From Candidatus Aenigmatarchaeota archaeon (GTDB lineage Archaea > Aenigmatarchaeota > Aenigmatarchaeia > QMZP01 > QMZT01): a stretch of 64,000 nt of DNA. Below are positions 23,842-43,622 of the stretch, piece after piece; position 1 is the stretch's first letter; the number at the start of each line of letters is the position of its first letter. The position numbers were made by a program, and so were the translations under genes. The notes beneath the pieces were generated by a model. That model did not search any database, had not been told where the DNA came from, and worked only from the letters and a program-made list of their open reading frames with translations. The DNA lies in contig CAVSBQ010000002.1 in NCBI GenBank assembly GCA_963726265.1, forward strand, positions 384,001 through 448,000. The letters are read 5' to 3'.

Positions 23842-23966
23842 GCCGGGATGGCGGAATGGTAACGCGCTAGCCTGGAAAAAGGCTTAGGATTCCGCTGATG
23901 CGGAATTAACAAAAACAGACAGCTAGTCTCCTTACGGGGTCCTGGGTTCGAATCCCAGTCCCGGCG
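23842..23966 (+). tRNA. tRNA-Ser(GGA) with 43-nt intron at 37/38 (23878-23920)
   Basis: GCCGGGA/TCCCGGC acceptor, CTAGC-CT-GGA-A|A-GCTAG, long variable arm, TTCGAAT T-loop. Confidence 0.93.
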
Positions 23967-29776: not shown

Positions 29777-29926
29777 TGCGGGGGCAGGGATTCGAACCCT
29801 GGAACACATTCCTCGTTCTTCGCTTTCGCGAAAGGCACTCTAAGTGAATAGGTCTTGAGCGTCGACATCATCTTGAATCAGGGTTCAAGACCATCCTATC
29901 GCCTTTAACCACTTGGCTACCCCCGC
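29777..29926 (-). tRNA. tRNA-Leu(CAA) with two non-canonical introns: 30/31 (29861-29895) and variable arm (~29808-29839)
   Basis: Reverse complement: GCGGGGG...ATAG|G-CT-CAA-GA-CCTAT-TCACTTAG|GTGTTC-CAGGG TTCGAAT CCCTG CCCCCGC A; first intron has a CGAT/GTCG BHB helix. Confidence 0.88.
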
Positions 29927-30503: not shown

Positions 30504-30546
30504 GTTTATTATTTCCCCCTTTGATAATAAATAGGTTAATTCCTGA

Positions 30547-30643
30547 TGCGCCGGCCGGGATTTGAACCCGGGCCACAGGCTTGGCAAGCTTGCACCAAAC
30601 CAACTTCATGTGTCTGTGTCCTACCAGGCTAGACTACCGGCGC
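30547..30643 (-). tRNA. tRNA-Gly(GCC) with 24-nt intron at 29/30 (30590-30613)
   Basis: Reverse complement: GCGCCGG...CAG|GC-TT-GCC-AA-GCCTG...CCGGG TTCAAAT CCCGG CCGGCGC A. Confidence 0.92.
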
Positions 30644-30682
30644 ATGTCTGGTAAAGAATTATTACCAAACTTGAATTTAAAA

Positions 30683-33005: not shown

Positions 33006-33755
33006 ATGTTCAAGATAACTTTGGGGGATGCGGATCTGCTTAAGAATTCAATACCGATAATTGCGGAGATTATAGACGAAGGAGTATTCAAGGTGGACGC
33101 GAAAGGGTTATCGCTCATCTCGCCGGACAGGAGCATGATAGCGCTTGTCGATTTCCAACTCCTGTCGACCGCATTCGAGGATTTCAAGGTGACGGGCGAG
33201 AACATGCTCGGCCTCAACCTAGAGAACCTCGTCGCCGTCATAAAGAGGATAAAGACGGGGGAAAAGGTCGTTCTTACGAAGGAAGACGGCTCGAACATCC
33301 TTGAAGTCGTCATGAAGGGCAAGGGAACGAGGAAGTTCGAAATCCCGCTGCTGAACATCTCGACGGAGAAGCCGCCTCTGGACCAGCTCAAGTTCAAGGG
33401 CAAGATAGAAGTCGACGCCAGAGTGCTTGAAGAGGGCATAACGGACGCGGACATAGTCGACGACTCCATCGTGTTCGAAAGCGAGCCGCATTTCTTCAAG
33501 ATATGGGCCAAGGGCGACATGAACTCGTCCCAGCTCGAGCTGAAGAAAGGCGAGGAAGGCCTCGATAAGATCGAGGTCCACGAGCCCATGAGGTCGCGCT
33601 ACCCGCTTGAATACCTGAAGAAAATGATGAAGGCCTCGAAGTTCTCGGACAAGGTCCTTCTGGAATTCTCGAACGACTATCCGCTGAAGCTGATCTTCAA
33701 GGACATCGACAAGATACATCTTTCATTTGTCCTTGCGCCGCGCGTCGAGGAGTAG
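33006..33755 (+). CDS. pcn: PCNA sliding clamp
   Basis: DRSMIALVD, SRYPLEYLKKM, DYPLKL, FVLAPRVEE. Confidence 0.95.
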   Translation: MFKITLGDADLLKNSIPIIAEIIDEGVFKVDAKGLSLISPDRSMIALVDFQLLSTAFEDFKVTGENMLGLNLENLVAVIKRIKTGEKVVLTKEDGSNILEVVMKGKGTRKFEIPLLNISTEKPPLDQLKFKGKIEVDARVLEEGITDADIVDDSIVFESEPHFFKIWAKGDMNSSQLELKKGEEGLDKIEVHEPMRSRYPLEYLKKMMKASKFSDKVLLEFSNDYPLKLIFKDIDKIHLSFVLAPRVEE

Positions 33756-34613: not shown

Positions 34614-34639
34614 ATATAACACAGCGGGGTGGAGAAATA

Positions 34640-35224
34640 ATGACACTGAATAAAATATTTTTAGAAAATTTAACGGAAACTGAAAAGGGATATATTATCG
34701 GTTTGTTTATTGGAGATGGCTATTCTTATTATGATAAAAAACATAGACATTATACAATTGAATTTTATTTGAATTCAGAACGCAACAAGAAAATACAAAA
34801 ACAATTAATTTTCTTATTGGAAAAAATTGGATTGAAGTGTTTTGTTTTAAAGGACAAGAGGTTTAATTGCAATAGAATAAGAGTTTATTCAAAACATCTA
34901 GTTAACTTTTTGAATTCATCTGTGATAAGAAATTGTAAAATCGATTTCGGTATTGGTTATGTATCAGGTATTATAGATTCTGAAGGCTATGTAAATCATG
35001 AAAAAAGTTTTGTTAATGTAGTTAGCACAAACAAAGACGTATTGAAAAATTGCAAGAATATTTTGAAAAAATTTAAAATTGAAGCTAAAATTAGAAATAG
35101 AAAAAAATCTAGCAAAGATAAAAAGAAATCTTATATATTACACATATCATACAAGATTAAAGATATAAAGTTAAATTCGATTAAGATGAACAGCGGGGCA
35201 ATGCTTAGCGGGGATTGTCTTTGA
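34640..35224 (+). mobile_element. Two-motif LAGLIDADG homing endonuclease gene inserted at the tRNA-iMet 5' end
   Basis: Motifs GYIIGLFIGDG and GYVSGIIDSEG; much more AT-rich than flanks; bounded by an ACAGCGGGG direct repeat (34621-34629, 35190-35198). Confidence 0.9.
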
Positions 35225-35303
35225 GACAACCGCAATGGAGCAGCCTGGAGTGCTCGCTGGGCCCATAACCCAGAGGTCGATGGTTCAAATCCATCCCCCG
35301 CTA
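35207..35303 (+). tRNA. Initiator tRNA-Met(CAT) with 22-nt intron at 7/8 (35214-35235); alternative 5' exon at 34623-34629 would give a 606-nt intron
   Basis: AGCGGGG|TGGAGCAGCCTGGAGTGCTCG CTGGG CC CAT AA CCCAG...CCCCGCT A; A1-U72 and three G-C pairs mark an initiator; BHB helix GCGG/CCGC. Confidence 0.9.
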
Positions 35304-36778: not shown

Positions 36779-38029
36779 ATGAGCAAGGTTAAGGATGCGA
36801 AGCTGGCGGAAGAAGGGAGGATGAAGATAAGGTGGGCGGAAGACCACATGCCCGTTCTCACCAGCATAAGGAAGCGCTTCGCAAAGGAGAAGCCGCTGAA
36901 AGGCCTGACCATCGCATGCTGCCTGCACGTGACGAAGGAAACCGCAGTCCTAGCCAGGACGCTTAAGGCAGGAGGCGCGGACGTCTACCTTTGCGGCTCG
37001 AACCCGCTCAGCACGCAGGACGACGTTTCAGCCGCCCTCGTCAGCGACGGCATAAACGTATTCGCCTGGCGGGGCGTTACGAATGACGAGTATTACTGGT
37101 GCATAGACCAGGTGCTTGATGCCAAACCGAACATCACCATGGACGACGGCGGCGACCTCGTCACACGAATAATTTCAAAGAGGCCGGAGCTGCTAAAGAA
37201 TGTCGTGGCAGGAACGGAGGAGACGACGACCGGCGTGATACGCTTCCGCGCCATGGAAAGGGACGGCGTCCTGAAATATCCGATAATAGCTGTAAATGAT
37301 GCCTACACGAAACACCTGTTTGACAACCGCTACGGCACCGGCCAGTCCACCATAGACGGCATCATGCGCGCAACGTCCGTTCTCATCTCTGGCAAGAATT
37401 TCGTCGTTTCGGGTTACGGCTGGTGCTCGCGTGGGATAGCCATGCGCGCAAGGGGCATGGGAGCGAACGTCATAGTGACGGAAGTCGACCCGCTGAAGGC
37501 GCTGGAAGCAGTGATGGACGGCTTCAGCGTGATGGCGCTGCTTGATGCGGCAAAGGTCGGCGACATATTCGTGACGGCGACGGGCTGCAAGGACATAATC
37601 AGGAAGGAACATATTTCAAAAATGAAGAATGGCGCGATTCTTGCGAACTCGGGCCATTTCGACGCCGAGATAAACAAGAAGGACCTCCAGGCGCTTACGA
37701 AGTCGAAGCAGGTCATAAGGCCGAACGTGGAGGAGATCACCCTGAAAAACGGCAAGAAAGTTTATTTCCTTGCGGAGGGCAGGCTTGTCAACCTCGCCGC
37801 CGCAGAAGGCCATCCCAGCGAAGTGATGGACATGAGCTTCGCCAACCAGGCCTTGTCTGCAGAATACATAGTAAGGAACAAAGGCAAGCTCGCCGCTAAG
37901 GTTTACGGCGTACCTGAAGACATCGACAGGAACATCGCAAAGCTTAAGCTTGAATCTATGAGCGTGAAAATCGACGCGCTCACGCCGGAGCAGAAGCGCT
38001 ATCTCTCCGACTGGAAAGAAGGGACCTGA
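36779..38029 (+). CDS. ahcY: S-adenosylhomocysteine hydrolase
   Basis: [56 protein letters not shown]. Confidence 0.97.
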
Positions 38030-38030
38030 T

Positions 38031-38978
38031 TCATTTTCCGTAAAGCTCTTTTCCAACGGTCGAAAGCATGCCGAGGCCTTTGACCTCGTTCTTGTAAAGC
38101 GGTATCTGGAGGATTTCCAAACCCCTGAACTTGCCGCGTATTTCCCTGAGCCGCTCCTGCTGGATTCTTCGTCGCTCGCTGCAGAAGGGGCATTTCCTGT
38201 TGTCCGGAATGAGCTGGTTGACGAAGACCGCGTTCACGAGTATGCCGTATTCGGCCAGTATCTTGACCGAGCGCTCTGACTCGTATATGCTCATGGCCTC
38301 GGGTATCATGACCAGGTTGAAGCGCGTCCTCTTCCTGTCGCCGAGGATTTTTCTTGCCTCGGCTATGCGCTTTTTCATCAGCTCGAGTTCCTCCGTCCCG
38401 AATTTCGTTTCCTTGCCTTCCTCGCCGAAGGGCAGCATCTTCTTGAACATGCCCATGACGCCCGCGAGCTTCAGGCGTATGTTTATCATCTTGCCGACCC
38501 AGGAATCGAGCAGGTCAGGAAGCGAGAGGAAGCGTATGGTGTGGCCGAAGGGCGCGGTATCGAAAACGATGATGTCGTAATCCCTTGACTGCATGTATTG
38601 CAGGAACTTGTCAAACGCCGCTAGCTCGTCTATGCCCGGCGTGTTGCCGGCGAAGTCGAAGGCGTCGCCAAGGTCGAGGCCTTTCAGGAAATCAACGTTG
38701 TCAAGCTTGGGCGCTATCTTATTCTTGTATTCGGCCATCGCCTTCTTGGGGTCTATCTCAACCGCGAAAAGGTTCTTGCTTACCCCGATGATGTCGCCGC
38801 CTATGCTCTTCTCAAACGAGTCGGAAAGCGAATGCGCGGGGTCCGTAGATATTATCAGGGTCTTTTTGCCACGGCCTGCGAAATGCAGCGCCGTCGCCGC
38901 GGCTATGCTTGTCTTGCCCACGCCGCCCTTGCCGGCGAAAAGATAGAACTGCGTTTCCTTTTTACCCAGGTGCACCAT
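38031..38978 (-). CDS. ArsA/Get3 (TRC40) family ATPase
   Basis: GKGGVGKT, STDPAHSLSD, PGIDE, DTAPFGHT, CPFC. Confidence 0.92.
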   Translation of the reverse strand: MVHLGKKETQFYLFAGKGGVGKTSIAAATALHFAGRGKKTLIISTDPAHSLSDSFEKSIGGDIIGVSKNLFAVEIDPKKAMAEYKNKIAPKLDNVDFLKGLDLGDAFDFAGNTPGIDELAAFDKFLQYMQSRDYDIIVFDTAPFGHTIRFLSLPDLLDSWVGKMINIRLKLAGVMGMFKKMLPFGEEGKETKFGTEELELMKKRIAEARKILGDRKRTRFNLVMIPEAMSIYESERSVKILAEYGILVNAVFVNQLIPDNRKCPFCSERRRIQQERLREIRGKFRGLEILQIPLYKNEVKGLGMLSTVGKELYGK

Positions 38979-38999
38979 AACCAACCCCTCAAAGGCGAA

Positions 39000-39251
39000 T
39001 TACATGTTGAAAAGGAAAGTCCAGCTCACTATCCATACGAGGATGTACAGCAGCGCGCCGTTAGATACCCACCACTTGATGCCTTTTTTCTTCAGGGCGA
39101 ATTCTGTCGCATACCCTGTTATCAGAAGTATGATCACCATCGCGCCGAATGCGTAAAGGCCGTCAGCCAGCACGTGCGCGGCGTATCCCGCTGCTATCCC
39201 GGCGACCGTGTGGATCCCGAGCGAAACCCTCGAAGCCTTCAAATCATCCAT
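39000..39251 (-). CDS. Small three-TM protein, EMC6-like (DUF5379-type)
   Basis: 83 aa with three hydrophobic segments, ending WWVSNG..Y..VWIVSWTFLFN. Confidence 0.7.
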   Translation of the reverse strand: MDDLKASRVSLGIHTVAGIAAGYAAHVLADGLYAFGAMVIILLITGYATEFALKKKGIKWWVSNGALLYILVWIVSWTFLFNM

Positions 39252-39283
39252 TTTATAGAATTTGTATGCGGGGTTTAAAGGAT

Positions 39284-40072
39284 TTAATTAGAGTAATGTG
39301 AGTTGTCCTGTTTTTTGTGAGGGTTCGGGCTTCTTTTTTCTTTTTTTGATGATTCGTGGCTGAATTGGCTTGTATTTCTCTGGGGTGAATTAAAAATCCT
39401 GTTCTTATCTCTTTCCGGAAGCGGCATTATAAGTTGCTGGCAGTATAATCTTCTTTCGCTCACTATCTTCTCCCATTTTTTTGGCATCAAAACCCGTAGT
39501 TTTACGTAATATGCGGATATGCTTGATCCACGAAAATCAGCGAGGAAAAAAGAATGCGGCATCGAATTTTATATCTGTTATTCTAACATCTCCAATTCTC
39601 CGAGAAGCAAGCTCCGCATCACAGCAGCCTTCGCAATAATAATTTTCCGGTTCAATTGCATCGAAATAAATAAACCTCTCTCCCGTTTTTAAAGTCTATT
39701 GGTATTGTAATTTTTTCTGCGGGCTTGTTTTTGCACACGCTGCAATTATAGATAGGGTACAAAGTTGGTTCAATTTTCGAATTGTTCTTCCTTGTAACTC
39801 CTCCGAAAATATTTTTCAATACGGCGAAGTTCTTTTTCGTTTTTTGGTTTGTAAAATGAAAGATCAAGAAGCGGCGTATCATTGCCCTCTCTTCTTCGGA
39901 TAAACATTTTAAAAAGGATTGAGGATTTAAAATTTGCACCAAAGCCGTCTCAGCAAACGTTTGAGAGATCTGTATGTTTTCTGGGCCGATAAAGAGCTGC
40001 CTCTTCTATGCTAAGGTGTTTTATCCTTAAGCTGCTTCCGTATCCCTTCTCAAAGCCGATAATATAAATCAT
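39284..40072 (-). pseudogene. Frameshifted AT-rich hypothetical gene with a zinc finger (CSVC...CEGC)
   Basis: ATG 40072 (MIYIIGFEKG) joins ORF 39652-39942 and ORF 39284-39562 through about three frame changes. Confidence 0.55.
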
Positions 40073-40075
40073 TCT

Positions 40076-40267
40076 TTAAGTCTTCTCGGAAGTATTTAAA
40101 TACTTTTTTACCCTCTAAAAGTAGTGATATTTTGTTAATGCCATTACTTTCTTCGATGGCGTCATCTTCTTGCGTCTATTCTTCAGCTTGTGCTTCTTTA
40201 TCTTTTTCCTTTTCCTTTTCCTTCCGCAGGGAATACGAATCACCTGTATTATATTTGCCTTTACATC
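40076..40267. repeat. ~190-bp direct repeat, copy 1 (tiny basic gene plus promoter)
   Basis: Near-identical to 40916-41105; period 840 bp. Confidence 0.95.
40144..40234 (-). CDS. Tiny basic ribosomal protein, bS22/mS38 (AURKAIP1/COX24)-like; copy 1 with a +1 lesion near the 3' end
   Basis: ATT-CCC-TGC-GGA...: PCGRKRKRKKIKKHKLKNRRKKM/RHRRK*; AGGTGA RBS. Confidence 0.65.
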
Positions 40268-40276
40268 ATAGAGGTT

Positions 40277-40913
40277 ATCGATTATGACAAACTAAACTTC
40301 TCAGTTTAGCGTAAACTTTCCCTTTATCCATGATTCCATTCTCTATTTTCCGGATTGAACCTGCGAGTCTTACAGGATCATTATACTGAGGAAGGTAATC
40401 TGAAGCTTATATCCATGAGCTGTGCAACACTTGTACATATTTGATAAAAAAGATTTCGACCACTAGATCTTTGGATATCAACTTGCTCCTCTGCGCACGA
40501 ATCGAGCAAAACAGGCTTAGCTGAAGGATATGTCTGGTTTACCTTTCAGGAGCGCCTCTCCATATCTTTTCATCAGCATTAGGCTCGTAACGATAAGGCA
40601 AAGTCCACACCCTTGCTTCATTTCCGCAGGCCCCATACCTGCCCTCGCACTTGACATGAACTCCCAGTTGTTTTCCCAGCGCATTGTCAATTTCTTGGAT
40701 GCTTGCCAGATCATCATCGATTACAATATTTGTCCGTAATGTTCTATCTGGACGTGCCAGATAGCTATGAATATAGTTGAAACCGTCAAAGCCATCGAGC
40801 AAGGGCAGCTGAGCTAAAGAATACAACCGTGAGTCAGGCAATCTTTTTTCTTCCGCATCCTTCGCGTATTGGCCAAAATTTATCAAAACTATGGCCCTCG
40901 GATCGAATGACAT
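40277..40913 (-). pseudogene. Hypothetical cargo gene between the repeats; ORF 40539-40913 plus frameshifted continuation
   Basis: ATG lies directly at the repeat edge; protein-like frames continue to ~40277. Confidence 0.5.
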
Positions 40914-40915
40914 GC

Positions 40916-41105
40916 TTAAGTCTTCTCGGAAGTATTTAAATACTTTTTTACCCTCTAAAAGTAGTGATATTTTGTTATTTTCATTACTTTCTTCGATGGC
41001 GCATCTTCTTGCGTCTCTTCTTCAGCTTGTGCTTCTTTATCTTTTTCCTTTTTCTTTTCTTCCGCAGGGAATACAAATCACCTGTATTATATTTGCATTT
41101 ACATC
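40916..41105. repeat. ~190-bp direct repeat, copy 2
   Basis: Near-identical to 40076-40267; begins ~25 nt downstream of the tRNA-Thr 3' end. Confidence 0.95.
40984..41072 (-). CDS. Tiny basic ribosomal protein bS22/mS38-like; copy 2 with a -1 lesion in an A/G tract
   Basis: PCGRK/..KIKKHKLKKRRKKMRHRRK*; 89 nt versus the 90 nt expected. Confidence 0.65.
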
Positions 41106-41129
41106 TTAATATTTGAATTGTGACCCCAA

Positions 41130-41273
41130 AGCCCCGGGCGAGGATTGAACTCGCGACCTTTCGCTTTCTGGAAGTCGAGTGACCAGCGAAGCGAAGCTAC
41201 TGGTTTTCGCTTAAGCCTTTTGAGTAAAAGGCTATTATACCAAGCGAACGCTCTACCACTGAGCTACCGAGGC
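41130..41273 (-). tRNA. tRNA-Thr(GGT) with 72-nt intron at 37/38 (41166-41237)
   Basis: Reverse complement: GCCTCGG TA GCTCAGTGGTAGAGC G TTCGC TT GGT A|A GCGAA...CCGGGGC T; BHB helix TTGG/CCAG. Confidence 0.93.
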
Positions 41274-41327
41274 GGATAATATACAATAAGCTATCTTCTT
41301 TTTATTTGTTAGAACACGGCAGAACGC

Positions 41328-42116
41328 TTAAAACAGAAAAACCCTTTCCGTTTTTATTTTATCGCCCGCTTTTTTGCCGAGCGCTATTATCGAGCCGCTT
41401 CCGTCGAAGATGCCCACTGTCTGGTTTTCTTCCGCTTTTTCCATGCTCACTATGAAGTCGGAAAAAACTGGGCTGCCGTTCCTTATTTTCGCGATGGCTT
41501 CGTCGTTGACGACGACCTTTTTCAGGCCGACCCTTTTCAGCGCCTCTTCAAGGGGAAAAACGTTTTTTTCCGAGAGTTCGGAAAGTGGAATTGCCTCGCT
41601 GATTTCGAAAGGTCCTATCTTCGTCCTGCGCAGCTCCGTCATGTGGGCGCCGCAACCGAGGGACTGGCCTATGTCATGGACGAGCTTGCGTATGTATGTC
41701 CCCGCCTCGCACAGGACTTCGAACCCGATTTCGCGGCCTTCGATTTTCAGAATCTTAAGCGAGTGAATCGTTCGCTTGCGCTCGATACGTGCGACGCGCG
41801 ATTTCACGGGCGGCTTCTGCATTATCTCTCCAGTAAATTTTCTGAAGGCTTTTTCAAGCGCGGATTTTTCGATGTCTCCGTGGAGAAGCATTTCACCGAC
41901 GTATTCTTTGTCCATGCCCATGAGGACTGGCATCGCCTTCCTCGCTTCCTCGAGCGCGATGAGCATGAGACCCGTGACGTTCGGGTCAAGCGTCCCAGTA
42001 TGGCCGCCGCGGCTGGCGCCGAGGATTTTGCACGTCTTTTCCACGACGTCAAAACTGGTCATGCCAGCTGGCTTGTCAACAAGGACTACGCCTTTTTTCA
42101 GAATCTGGCCTGCCAT
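41328..42116 (-). CDS. truB: tRNA pseudouridine synthase Cbf5/TruB
   Basis: VDKPAGMTS, GHTGTLDP, QKPPVKSRV, CEAGTYIRKL, C-terminal PUA. Confidence 0.92.
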   Translation of the reverse strand: MAGQILKKGVVLVDKPAGMTSFDVVEKTCKILGASRGGHTGTLDPNVTGLMLIALEEARKAMPVLMGMDKEYVGEMLLHGDIEKSALEKAFRKFTGEIMQKPPVKSRVARIERKRTIHSLKILKIEGREIGFEVLCEAGTYIRKLVHDIGQSLGCGAHMTELRRTKIGPFEISEAIPLSELSEKNVFPLEEALKRVGLKKVVVNDEAIAKIRNGSPVFSDFIVSMEKAEENQTVGIFDGSGSIIALGKKAGDKIKTERVFLF

Positions 42117-42118
42117 AT

Positions 42119-42754
42119 TCATTCAATCAATTTTACAATCTTAGGGATTTCATCCTCAACTTTTATCAGATTCAGATCGATTTTGCTTATGTAATTGTCC
42201 CTTAAGGCAGTGGATTCAAGCCAATCAAAAAGACCTTCCCAGTACTTTTTACCAACGCAAATCAGCGGCACCTGGTCGACGATGCCGTTCTGCATCAGCA
42301 TTGCGTTTTCGAGCAGCTCGTTAAGCGTGCCGAAGCCGCCGGGATAGTATATGATTGCCTCTGATTTTATCAGCATTATGAACCTCCTCGCAAAGAAGAA
42401 GTGAAAACGCAGGACGTCTGTATATAGCTTTTCCGTGACTTTTTCATTCACCAGTAAATCAGCCTTGCACCCTATGGATTTCGTTTTCGCGTCCATCGCA
42501 CCCGAGTTCGCCGCGTGCATTATTCCCGGTCCTCCGCCGGTCATTATCGCATAGTCCTTCTTGCCCAATTCAAAGGCAAGTTTTCTTGCATGCTCGTAAT
42601 ATTTGTTTCCGGGCTTGATTCTGGCAGAGCCCTGAAAAACAACGATTTCTGAATCTATCTTTCTGAGCAGACCCAAGCCGGCTTTTATTTCGCTGCTAGC
42701 CTTGCCCACTGTCCATTCGTCGTGATAAATCTTGTTCTTGTGGAATCTGACCAT
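42119..42754 (-). CDS. LOG family (TIGR00730) nucleotide phosphoribohydrolase
   Basis: TGGGPGIM, PGGFGTLNEL. Confidence 0.88.
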   Translation of the reverse strand: MVRFHKNKIYHDEWTVGKASSEIKAGLGLLRKIDSEIVVFQGSARIKPGNKYYEHARKLAFELGKKDYAIMTGGGPGIMHAANSGAMDAKTKSIGCKADLLVNEKVTEKLYTDVLRFHFFFARRFIMLIKSEAIIYYPGGFGTLNELLENAMLMQNGIVDQVPLICVGKKYWEGLFDWLESTALRDNYISKIDLNLIKVEDEIPKIVKLIE

Positions 42755-42788
42755 AATAATAATTGAGATTATTTTTAAAAAGAAAAAA

Positions 42789-43622
42789 CTATTCAGCTTC
42801 CTGCTTTTTCTTGTTTTCCTTCGTTTCTGCTTTCTCAACCTTCTGTTTCCTGACCGCCTTTTTCCTTTCTTTATTCGGGGCCGCTTCCTTTTCAGCGGGC
42901 TTTTCCTCGGCCACCGCCTCTTCCTCGGCCTTCTCGGGCCTGGCGGCGTGGAACTCCGGCGATTTAAGCACCTTTATCCTCGCTATTTCAGAGAACCTGA
43001 CGGGATAAACCTTGCTGCCCGTCTTCTTGAGCATCATCTGCATTTCCGTCGTAAGCACTTTCCTCACGAACTCGCCCATGTCGCTTTTGCCAGCGAAATC
43101 GTTGAAGAAGCTGGCCGTAAGGTGTCTCATTTTGGTTTCTATGTTGGCCACCGGCTTGCCGTTGAGTATGGTCCACGGCTTTATCCTGAGTATCCATCCG
43201 TCCTTGGTTGTGACGTCGACGACCGTCTCGACCTTCTGGTTCCTTTTCCTGATCATCCTTAACAGGTGGTCCCTCGTGCATTCCAGACCTCCGAAGGATG
43301 TCAGGCACGTCTTGCCCTCGACCTTCATGATTCTTACAAGTATCTTCATGTAGTATTTGGCGCCGTCTCCTGTTATGTCAGGGACGCCGACTTCCATCAA
43401 TCTTCCTATCAGCGATTCCGGGTCGGTCGCAGGCGTCTGGCCCAGGACTTTCGCTCCGAATTCCCTAGGAGCCAATATATTGAACCAGTCCTTGCCTTTC
43501 CATTTTTTGACCAGTATCTTTTCTTCCAACTGGTCCGGAGTGGCTTCCTTCTCCAGCTTCGCTTCCTTCTTCTCTTCCTTCTGTTCCTCTTCCTTCAGCC
43601 TCGGTTTGTTCTTCATGCCCAT
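42789..43622 (-). CDS. rps3ae: Ribosomal protein eS1 (S3Ae) with charged terminal extensions
   Basis: KWKGKDWFNILAP, KVYPVRFSEIARIKV. Confidence 0.92.
   Translation of the reverse strand: MGMKNKPRLKEEEQKEEKKEAKLEKEATPDQLEEKILVKKWKGKDWFNILAPREFGAKVLGQTPATDPESLIGRLMEVGVPDITGDGAKYYMKILVRIMKVEGKTCLTSFGGLECTRDHLLRMIRKRNQKVETVVDVTTKDGWILRIKPWTILNGKPVANIETKMRHLTASFFNDFAGKSDMGEFVRKVLTTEMQMMLKKTGSKVYPVRFSEIARIKVLKSPEFHAARPEKAEEEAVAEEKPAEKEAAPNKERKKAVRKQKVEKAETKENKKKQEAE

Follow-up and report, generated by a model that had tools for sequence, protein, structure and literature searches.

A One-Gene Replacement Slot in Candidatus Aenigmatarchaeota and a Tandem That Probably Joins Two of Its Types

Introduction

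Integrons hold cassette-sized open reading frames (ORFs) at one site, with a content that differs between strains, and mating-type idiomorphs, like other trans-species polymorphisms, are barely alignable alternatives that lie between sharply bounded homologous flanks and are shared across species. Here we describe a locus that is like both, in a 64,000-nucleotide stretch of a Candidatus Aenigmatarchaeota genome (hereafter the window, G000:C2:384001-448000; genome G000 comprises 1.13 Mb in 4 contigs and is 88% complete). Behind a tRNA-Thr gene, relatives of this archaeon carry a tiny ribosomal-type gene, a putative promoter and one exchangeable gene, whose position we call the slot; the window carries this module twice, each copy followed by what appears to be a dead slot gene (cargo A and cargo B). 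The original prediction, made from the letters of the window, took the region for an integron-like array of cassettes. An "integron without integrase" would have been striking, and that reading fails. Unlike integrons, the locus has no IntI, no attI/attC and no shared Pc, its cargo belongs to one family, and it forms no arrays. It also differs from mating-type idiomorphs in lying in a prokaryote, in having no known recognition function, and in its frequent empty or dead alleles.

Replacement flexible genomic islands, as outlined in PMC4033161 (Lopez-Perez, Martin-Cuadrado and Rodriguez-Valera 2014), hold alternative, non-alignable contents of similar role at the same position between conserved flanks, and their exchange is thought to go by homologous recombination in those flanks. 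The slot likewise keeps its position and conserved flanks in relatives, and its contents are non-alignable with sharp edges. It differs from the islands of that outline in spanning just one ORF, ~0.8 kb long and bounded by its start and stop codons, in a DPANN archaeon; in addition, it encodes a cytoplasmic-looking zinc protein and not a surface structure, and its types cross genera. Arrays of type VI secretion system (T6SS) effector-immunity modules, Rhs modules and contact-dependent inhibition (CDI) orphan modules offer a second parallel, a displacement with one homologous and one illegitimate junction being outlined by Kirchberger et al. (2017, PMC5361080). As in that outline, an incoming module, anchored by a conserved upstream stretch, would have displaced part of the resident one, with the old module left downstream; what results is a tandem in which the conserved part is repeated and the remnants are dead or orphaned. 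Compared with the arrays so described, our locus has no toxin or immunity genes and only two units, both apparently dead; its anchor is a putative ribosomal-protein gene with a promoter, and the event is unique among the loci compared and gives no sign of remnant selection.

Our favored reading, to which we give a probability of about 0.68, is a conserved backbone with alternative slot types, in which the tandem of G000 is a one-off, decaying recombinant of two haplotypes. The slot provides a clean case, in the barely studied DPANN archaea, of single-gene replacement polymorphism with codon-level edges; the same slot types recur in different genera, and the putative recombinant of the window would show how swaps can go wrong. 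Narrow literature searches on Aenigmarchaeota with L41e or genomic islands returned no description of the slot.

Results and Discussion

Replacement Polymorphism at the Slot

The loci of relatives were located by a Cbf5 protein search in 31 genomes plus a search with cargo A. Cbf5 was matched in 30 of the 31, cargo A homologues lie directly downstream of it in relatives, and the order conserved among Candidatus Aenigmatarchaeota relatives is Cbf5, tRNA-Thr, tiny gene, promoter, one gene of ~240-300 aa, EMC6-like gene and Get3/ArsA; over a wider range (tblastn, ten loci) it reads SLOG, Cbf5, (tRNA, tiny gene), slot gene, EMC6-like, ArsA/Get3, AHCY. The distance from Cbf5 to EMC6 is 1.15-1.29 kb in G002, G003, G004 and G017, 353 bp in G001, which has no slot gene there, and 2.08 kb in G000, an interval that implies one additional 840-bp unit.

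The tiny-gene module was found in 17 of the 22 genomes of the family, once in each, and twice in G000 only. What follows it in the 17 relatives is a gene of type X in 10, of type Y in 2, of a third type in 1, another ORF in 1 and EMC6 directly in 3, and none of them has a second module. A scan of metagenome contigs by exact pattern gave 28 loci, 5 of which were not the tiny gene; the remaining ~23 real loci, some of which probably duplicate genomes already counted, showed X in 5, Y in 2, EMC6 directly in 12 and other content in 4, and a second tiny gene in none (up to 2.5 kb on each side, some contigs being short). Across the order, type X is present in 14 of 91 genomes: 10 of the 22 in the family, 3 in one genus of another family, and G000 itself. 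This comparison bears out the original prediction in that the locus is hypervariable, with X, Y, a third type, another ORF or nothing in the slot. It does not support the supposed accumulation of cassettes into an array, since the window holds two units only and a second module occurs in none of the 17 relatives and none of the ~23 metagenome loci.

Replacement within a close background was seen in two metagenome contigs, L102 and L122, whose public names have one shared data-set prefix. Upstream their flanks share 97.4% identity over 2,619 bp, downstream 97.8% over 358 bp, and between these flanks one contig holds an X-like gene and the other a Y gene, without any alignment. The homology stops 3-7 nt before the start codons and returns 16-21 nt after the stops. 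Near-identical flanks around non-aligning ORFs mark the slot as a replacement polymorphism whose unit is one ORF. To this extent the word cassette was well chosen, as an ORF is swapped under a fixed promoter with edges a few nucleotides from its ends, but the capture system that the word implied drops out.

A tree was built from 14 X proteins, without Y and the third type (the entry winA covers 43% of the columns); genera are mixed within each of its two starred clades. With groups defined by genus codes, the approximately unbiased (AU) test rejected monophyly of X for genus g1 (p 1.6e-96) and genus g9 (p 1.1e-4), and genus g9 alone holds X genes from both clades, Y and the third type. Outside the family, type X was detected in 3 of 47 genomes of family f5 (L070-L072 = G072, G071, G075), in one f5 genus only; these genes group in the tree with the X clade that holds cargo A, and may have come by transfer between families. 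A wider reading, which we offer tentatively and rate somewhat short of an even chance, is that the slot is a long-lived polymorphism across species and genera of Aenigmatarchaeota. One novel-fold zinc protein would then exist as exact-ORF "idiomorphs" (X1, X2, X-like, Y, third type, empty), swapped under a fixed promoter by flank recombination, maybe under frequency-dependent selection (virus or host-cell conflict of these episymbionts), and the window would be a rare two-type recombinant.

The Repeated Module and Its Promoter

Coordinates below are those of the window, and the features of the locus lie on its minus strand. Repeat copy 2, next to the tRNA, spans 40916-41108 and comprises the putative tiny-gene promoter, the tiny ORF and the palindromic TATA promoter predicted for the slot gene, and copy 1, the distal one, spans 40076-40270 (repeat search and gapped alignment). 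They are direct repeats at a spacing of 838-840 and are 95% identical, the gapped alignment of about 195 nt containing 7 substitutions and 2 single-base indels. The two repeats of ~190 bp with an 840-bp period behind tRNA-Thr, as first predicted, are thus real, and the tRNA-Thr(GGU) call is upheld as well. A search of the whole 1.13-Mb genome yielded just these two known copies, the remaining matches being 14-22 nt long with E 0.19 or worse.

About 70 nt beyond the tiny ORF, each repeat carries AAGTATTTAAATACTT, a 16-bp perfect palindrome with an archaeal-type TATA box. Both copies end in AAGTATTTAAATACTT...GACTTAA, and an ATG follows 2-5 nt on, in keeping with the predicted repeat end a few bases ahead of a start codon. 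The box of copy 2, TATTTAAATA (40933-40942), forms the center of the palindrome 19 nt ahead of the ATG of cargo A, and that of copy 1 (40093-40102) lies about 20 nt ahead of the ATG of cargo B. The element is also kept upstream of the slot genes of relatives, where it is visible as translated "VFKY..EDL..M". The TATA element is probably the promoter of the slot gene and would give a leaderless mRNA. A scan for bacterial-type promoters and terminators, a type of scan not applicable to archaea, found sites no commoner than in shuffles.

Several of these features could be read as marks of a site-specific system, integron-like or of another kind, in which the tiny gene and promoter serve as the att module where unrelated genes are captured: direct repeats stand ahead of each ORF, the repeat stops a few nucleotides short of each ATG, the unit swapped in relatives is almost exactly the ORF, and the TATA box lies inside a perfect palindrome. 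This explanation is largely refuted, and we consider it the least credible of those weighed here. First, the window holds no recombinase, as predicted: a genome-wide search with PF00589 gave hits at C2:110068-110535 (~274 kb from the window start) and C1:14061-14558 and none inside C2:384001-448000. Second, no inverted repeat of 20 nt or more occurs in 37000-43500, the 16-bp TATA element being the sole palindrome, the repeat is absent elsewhere in the genome, and no other genome or locus has more than one module. Third, the cargoes appear to be homologous types of one family, both dead; the 5' junction is no defined site but falls within a truncated gene; and each unit has its own TATA element ~20 nt before the ATG, with predicted promoter activity. 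Of the homology role once assigned to the repeat, what stands is that the tiny gene, the promoter and the downstream flanks are a plausible route of exchange; the att or integron-like mechanism does not.

Copy 2 begins 21 nt past tRNA-Thr, and no tRNA sequence lies inside the repeat. An integrative element targeting the tRNA was considered as well and rejected, there being no integrase in the window, no tRNA part in the repeat, and the same slot and flanks in relatives.

Two Slot Genes of Different Types, Both Apparently Dead

Cargo A (40271-40913) is identified by hidden Markov model (HMM), synteny and frame map as a pseudogene of the X-type slot gene. Its codons 1-124 are in frame, and at least two frame changes and a double stop follow; the X HMM matches aa 1-114 with E 1e-32 and the following frameshifted piece with E 4e-3, and identity to the syntenic G002 gene is 58%. 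The invariant residues F134 and C136 are replaced. The final in-frame piece ends at about codon 195-200 and runs straight into repeat 1, with the last ~75 codons missing. Cargo B (39284-40072) appears, from six-frame matches to an intact gene of G012 and from its frame map, to be a full-length pseudogene of the Y-type slot gene, with at least three frame changes and at least two in-frame stops (tblastn frame map). Searching the order's 91 genomes in six frames with the longest ORF of cargo B pointed to this intact 256-aa gene of G012, which stands in the context tiny gene, same promoter, gene, EMC6, ArsA. Cargo B matches it with E 3.5e-19 (aa 1-105, 2 stops) and E 6.6e-17 (aa 73-245, 5 stops), and the reverse search with type Y matched 3 of the 91 genomes, namely G012, G005 (also just downstream of Cbf5) and G000. 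Over aa 1-105, cargo B is 47% identical to this Y gene in the same slot of another genus, and its DNA is 74% identical to the L122 Y gene over 517 nt that take in the repeat. Judged by their reading frames, both cargoes are dead versions of slot genes.

The two cargoes do not align as DNA and share ~15% identity at the profile level. Six-frame pieces of cargo B gave no significant match to the X HMM (best E 0.28 with 7 X proteins and 0.05 with 30). Profile-profile comparison of X with Y, however, gave a probability of 86% (E 5e-7 global, 5.6e-6 local), and hhalign with deeper alignments (A2, 30 rows; A3, 5 rows) gave 81.6%, E 1.1e-5, over 121 columns. X and Y match collinearly across both Cys pairs, an I-x-F strand and two helices, and the types are similar in length, Cys pattern and C-terminal motif. 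On this comparison, X and Y are remote homologues with four conserved cysteines. The genes behind the repeats, which the original prediction called unrelated, are accordingly better described as dead X and Y types of one putative superfamily. The third type, in the slot of G090, is 217 aa long and compares with Y at a probability of 50% (E 1.6e-4) and with X not at all. Searches for known relatives returned nothing above the cut-off in Pfam (cargo ORFs and 7 X proteins), 0 families in PADLOC (6 proteins), best matches of E 0.04 or weaker in PHROGs, a best score of 0.77 and no lead in the ESM Atlas, and no relative of Y among viral contigs.

Repeats 95% alike beside cargoes diverged to this extreme exclude that tiny gene, promoter and slot gene were simply duplicated in tandem in situ and then diverged, unless conversion hit the repeat alone. 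Such a duplication would produce the 840-bp period and the head-to-tail order, yet it would also have to leave A and B unalignable as DNA, and cargo B closer to the same-slot genes of another genus than to its neighbor; we hold it to be highly improbable.

Origin of the Tandem

The order of events that we infer is as follows. Among species and inside them, one slot type takes the place of another, and homology of the flanks reaches to the edges of the ORF. In the lineage of G000, X and Y haplotypes of the same or a sister population would have recombined, and a segment made of tiny gene, promoter and Y gene from a close relative would have been placed behind an X gene cut at about codon 200. 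One junction would be illegitimate, joining X codon ~200 to a donor point 21 nt downstream of the tRNA, and the other crossover would fall within the homologous downstream flank; a 195-bp direct repeat with an 840-bp period would result. Both slot genes would have decayed afterwards, unless they were decaying already; each tiny-gene copy has one single-base indel. The edges of the repeat conform to this route: the 5' edge of repeat 1 abuts the truncated X gene, the two having no sequence in common where they meet, and on the 3' side the full-length Y gene is followed by the normal EMC6 flank. Moreover, the repeat copies are 95% alike, against 80% to the nearest species, G002, so that the second module either came from a very close relative or was homogenized.

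Contigs of public sequencing runs give some support to haplotype recombination. In run X1, which also holds pieces identical to the window on both sides, a 615-nt contig joins 39264 to 40291 and skips the 1,026 bp of repeat 1 and cargo B, with 11 other letters and 43 gaps relative to the window; up to 261 letters could lie within the join, about enough for the missing X C-terminus plus a spacer. Some contigs of run X4 resemble copy 1, from which they differ by 1 change and 1 gap, and others the 5' part of cargo B, with 6 changes and 4 single-base gaps; contigs of run X2 have copy-1-like tiny genes beside the tRNA end, with other spacers.

The X1 contigs can also be read as a sign that the tandem exists in no cell, co-occurring strains of the X and Y haplotypes having been stitched into one contig by the assembler. 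The run has contigs identical to other parts of the window, one that skips 39265-40290 and no cover of cargo B, a gap that speaks for absence only through that one contig; both kinds of haplotype occur in nature within one species-level group, and the tandem was found in no other genome. Such a chimera nevertheless seems unlikely to us. The junction at X codon ~200, upstream of the tiny gene, provides no shared repeat for an assembler to walk, and two living haplotypes should show intact genes, whereas cargo A is frameshifted with stops and has lost an invariant Cys upstream of the junction, and cargo B has its three or more frame changes. The genes flanking the repeat region have intact reading frames, which argues that the assembly is not generally error-ridden.

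An older origin deserves rather less credence still, namely an ancient tandem of X and Y paralogues that was kept only in G000, lost partly or wholly elsewhere, and had its repeats homogenized by gene conversion. X and Y are indeed ancient at about 15% identity, and their patchy distribution across genera fits differential loss. On the other hand, two modules are kept in none of the 17 relatives or ~23 metagenome loci, cargo A is truncated exactly where repeat 1 starts, which looks like a junction and not an intact gene end, and L102 and L122 differ in the slot ORF only, which requires replacement or recombining-flank polymorphism, not independent losses.

Recombination of two haplotypes, the reading that we prefer, has several points against it. 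The tandem is in one assembly only, and no Logan contig of the public runs spans the junction near 40271; run X1 has no cover of 39368-40111 and includes the contig that skips this part, which fits an assembly chimera as well. The 95% identity of the repeats could equally reflect gene conversion after an old duplication, and sequencing errors may account for some of the single-base indels, even if the neighboring genes are intact. Furthermore, the suggested homology of X and Y comes from profile comparison, at a probability of 82-86%; against the X HMM by itself, cargo B attains no better than E 0.05, and the structure model of Y is too poor (predicted local distance difference test, pLDDT, 47.8) to be usable for a structural check.

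The Tiny Ribosomal-Protein ORF

The tiny ORF of copy 2 (40984-41076) encodes 30 aa from a TTG start and is assigned by profile match and alignment to the class of basic ribosomal proteins that includes bS22, eL41 and mS38. A 1-nt deletion in its purine run shifts it relative to the family frame (GTG at 41081), so that only the C-terminal 26 residues match the family. In copy 1 (40115-40243; sequence and alignment), the N-terminus is in the family frame and an added base at 40162 swaps the C-terminal RHRRK for 15 unrelated residues; this base is absent from contigs of runs X1 and X4, which could derive from copy 2-like sequence. The tiny ORF of these archaea is also seen at L048:15-104, L081:1501-1590 and L083:1501-1590.

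A profile of 7 orthologues (A4; 21 of its 31 columns are invariant) matched chains of the PDB, namely residues 1-28 of the 28 of 8fmw_V (bS22) with E 2.9e-4 and a shared MPCGRKRK start, 9i5v_10 (an AURKAIP1/COX24-domain chain) with E 5.6e-3, and 7jil_5 (Flavobacterium bS22) with E 0.022. Pfam models (E up to 0.1) and NCBIfam models (E up to 10) returned nothing for the tiny ORF itself. As bS22 is described as analogous to mS38 and eL41 in the relevant part of PMC10618245, the bS22 match means that the label of tiny ribosomal gene, given to the ORF in the original prediction, holds. Like these proteins, it is ~30 aa long and very basic, and it has the start seen in 8fmw_V; unlike bS22, it sits in an archaeon, is unmatched by Pfam and NCBIfam, and has ribosome binding as a prediction only. 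By sequence it is a real ORF, ribosomal in kind and of the bS22/eL41 class. It is closer to bacterial bS22 than to any archaeal L41e model. An exact look-up of 5 tiny ORFs found none in a collection of 15 billion proteins, and the gene is therefore probably unannotated in databases. A bS22-like ribosomal protein in an archaeon, overlooked by gene callers, would bear on the unsettled distribution of eL41 and bS22, that of L41e in archaea being called uncertain in the pertinent passage of PMC9258230.

The Slot Protein

The X proteins of relatives are 237-291 aa long with four invariant cysteines, and a profile search of 1.84 billion representatives returned only 30 clusters of the family at E 0.001 or better. 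An AlphaFold model of the G002 protein (P0003) reached pLDDT 92.7 and a predicted template-modeling score (pTM) of 0.87, with a disordered tail at 259-267. Foldseek gave no PDB match for the whole model (best E 0.39); VIA-align over 48,161 chains gave a best Z of 3.1, with 0 chains at Z 5 or more; and no match was obtained in BFVD (best E 0.1). With a confident model and no PDB or viral-model match, the protein is a candidate new fold.

A motif of the form Qxx(LF or [LFIM]x[FLYI]) occurs within the last 14 residues in 17 of 30 X proteins, in 2 of 4 Y proteins and in the third type, against 2.1% of internal 14-residue windows. This C-terminal Qxx(L/F)(x)(F/L) peptide, borne by the disordered tail in the G002 protein, may resemble clamp-binding peptides; a complex prediction for the G002 X protein with G002 PCNA scored 0.01, which is evidence neither way. 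As a working guess of low confidence, the slot protein may be a cytoplasmic zinc binder that uses its C-terminal peptide to dock on a partner and evolves under diversifying or frequency-dependent selection.

Genomic Setting

Upstream of the module lies a Cbf5/TruB-type pseudouridine synthase gene (41328-42122; Pfam TruB_N 3.3e-23 and PUA), syntenic in 30 of 31 relatives. Downstream are the gene for an EMC6-arch-like small membrane protein (39000-39251; Pfam EMC6_arch 6.5e-5, under the curated cut-off; syntenic in relatives) and that for an ArsA/Get3-type ATPase (38031-38984; Pfam ArsA_ATPase 1e-96; synteny). GC content is 35-46% over 39250-41200 and about 52-59% in the flanks, so the region is AT-rich as predicted. 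A PCNA gene (window ~33006-33335, plus strand; G002:C6:20781; G012:C8:7417) lies ~6-7 kb from the slot in all three genomes compared, a conserved neighborhood and not an adjacency.

The tRNA gene at 41130-41273 (Rfam tRNA, 54.9 bits) is overlooked by ARAGORN in default mode; with introns allowed, the program finds a 72-nt intron, sets it such that the anticodon becomes GGA, and names the gene Ser(GGA). The G001 orthologue (L040) has identical exons and no intron and is named Thr(GGT) by ARAGORN, from which the gene of the window is identified as tRNA-Thr(GGU), with the intron at position 37/38. Its intron, present in G000 and absent from G001, is a presence/absence variation inside one genus. 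Several further tRNA genes of the window have introns according to Rfam, and long matches of 97-150 nt at 30545-30644 (minus), 23842-23966 (plus) and 29777-29926 (minus) must hold introns too; ARAGORN calls one long intron-holding tRNA "tRNA-???", with a four-base anticodon.

Elsewhere in the window, a stretch of 25% GC at 34623-35303 (plus) adjoins tRNA-Met. Behind a TATA-like box, 34623-34634 equals the first 12 nt of mature tRNA-Met (acceptor, position 8 and the start of the D-stem), and a 194-aa ORF at 34640-35221 (plus) encodes a LAGLIDADG homing endonuclease (Pfam LAGLIDADG_3, 3e-16). After the endonuclease ORF, the 5' strand of the acceptor is repeated (35207-35213) and the tRNA body follows, the Rfam match beginning at model position 8. 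The arrangement looks like either a tRNA gene whose intron of ~600 nt, in a non-canonical position, bears the endonuclease, or the insertion of a homing endonuclease with duplication of the tRNA gene's 5' end.

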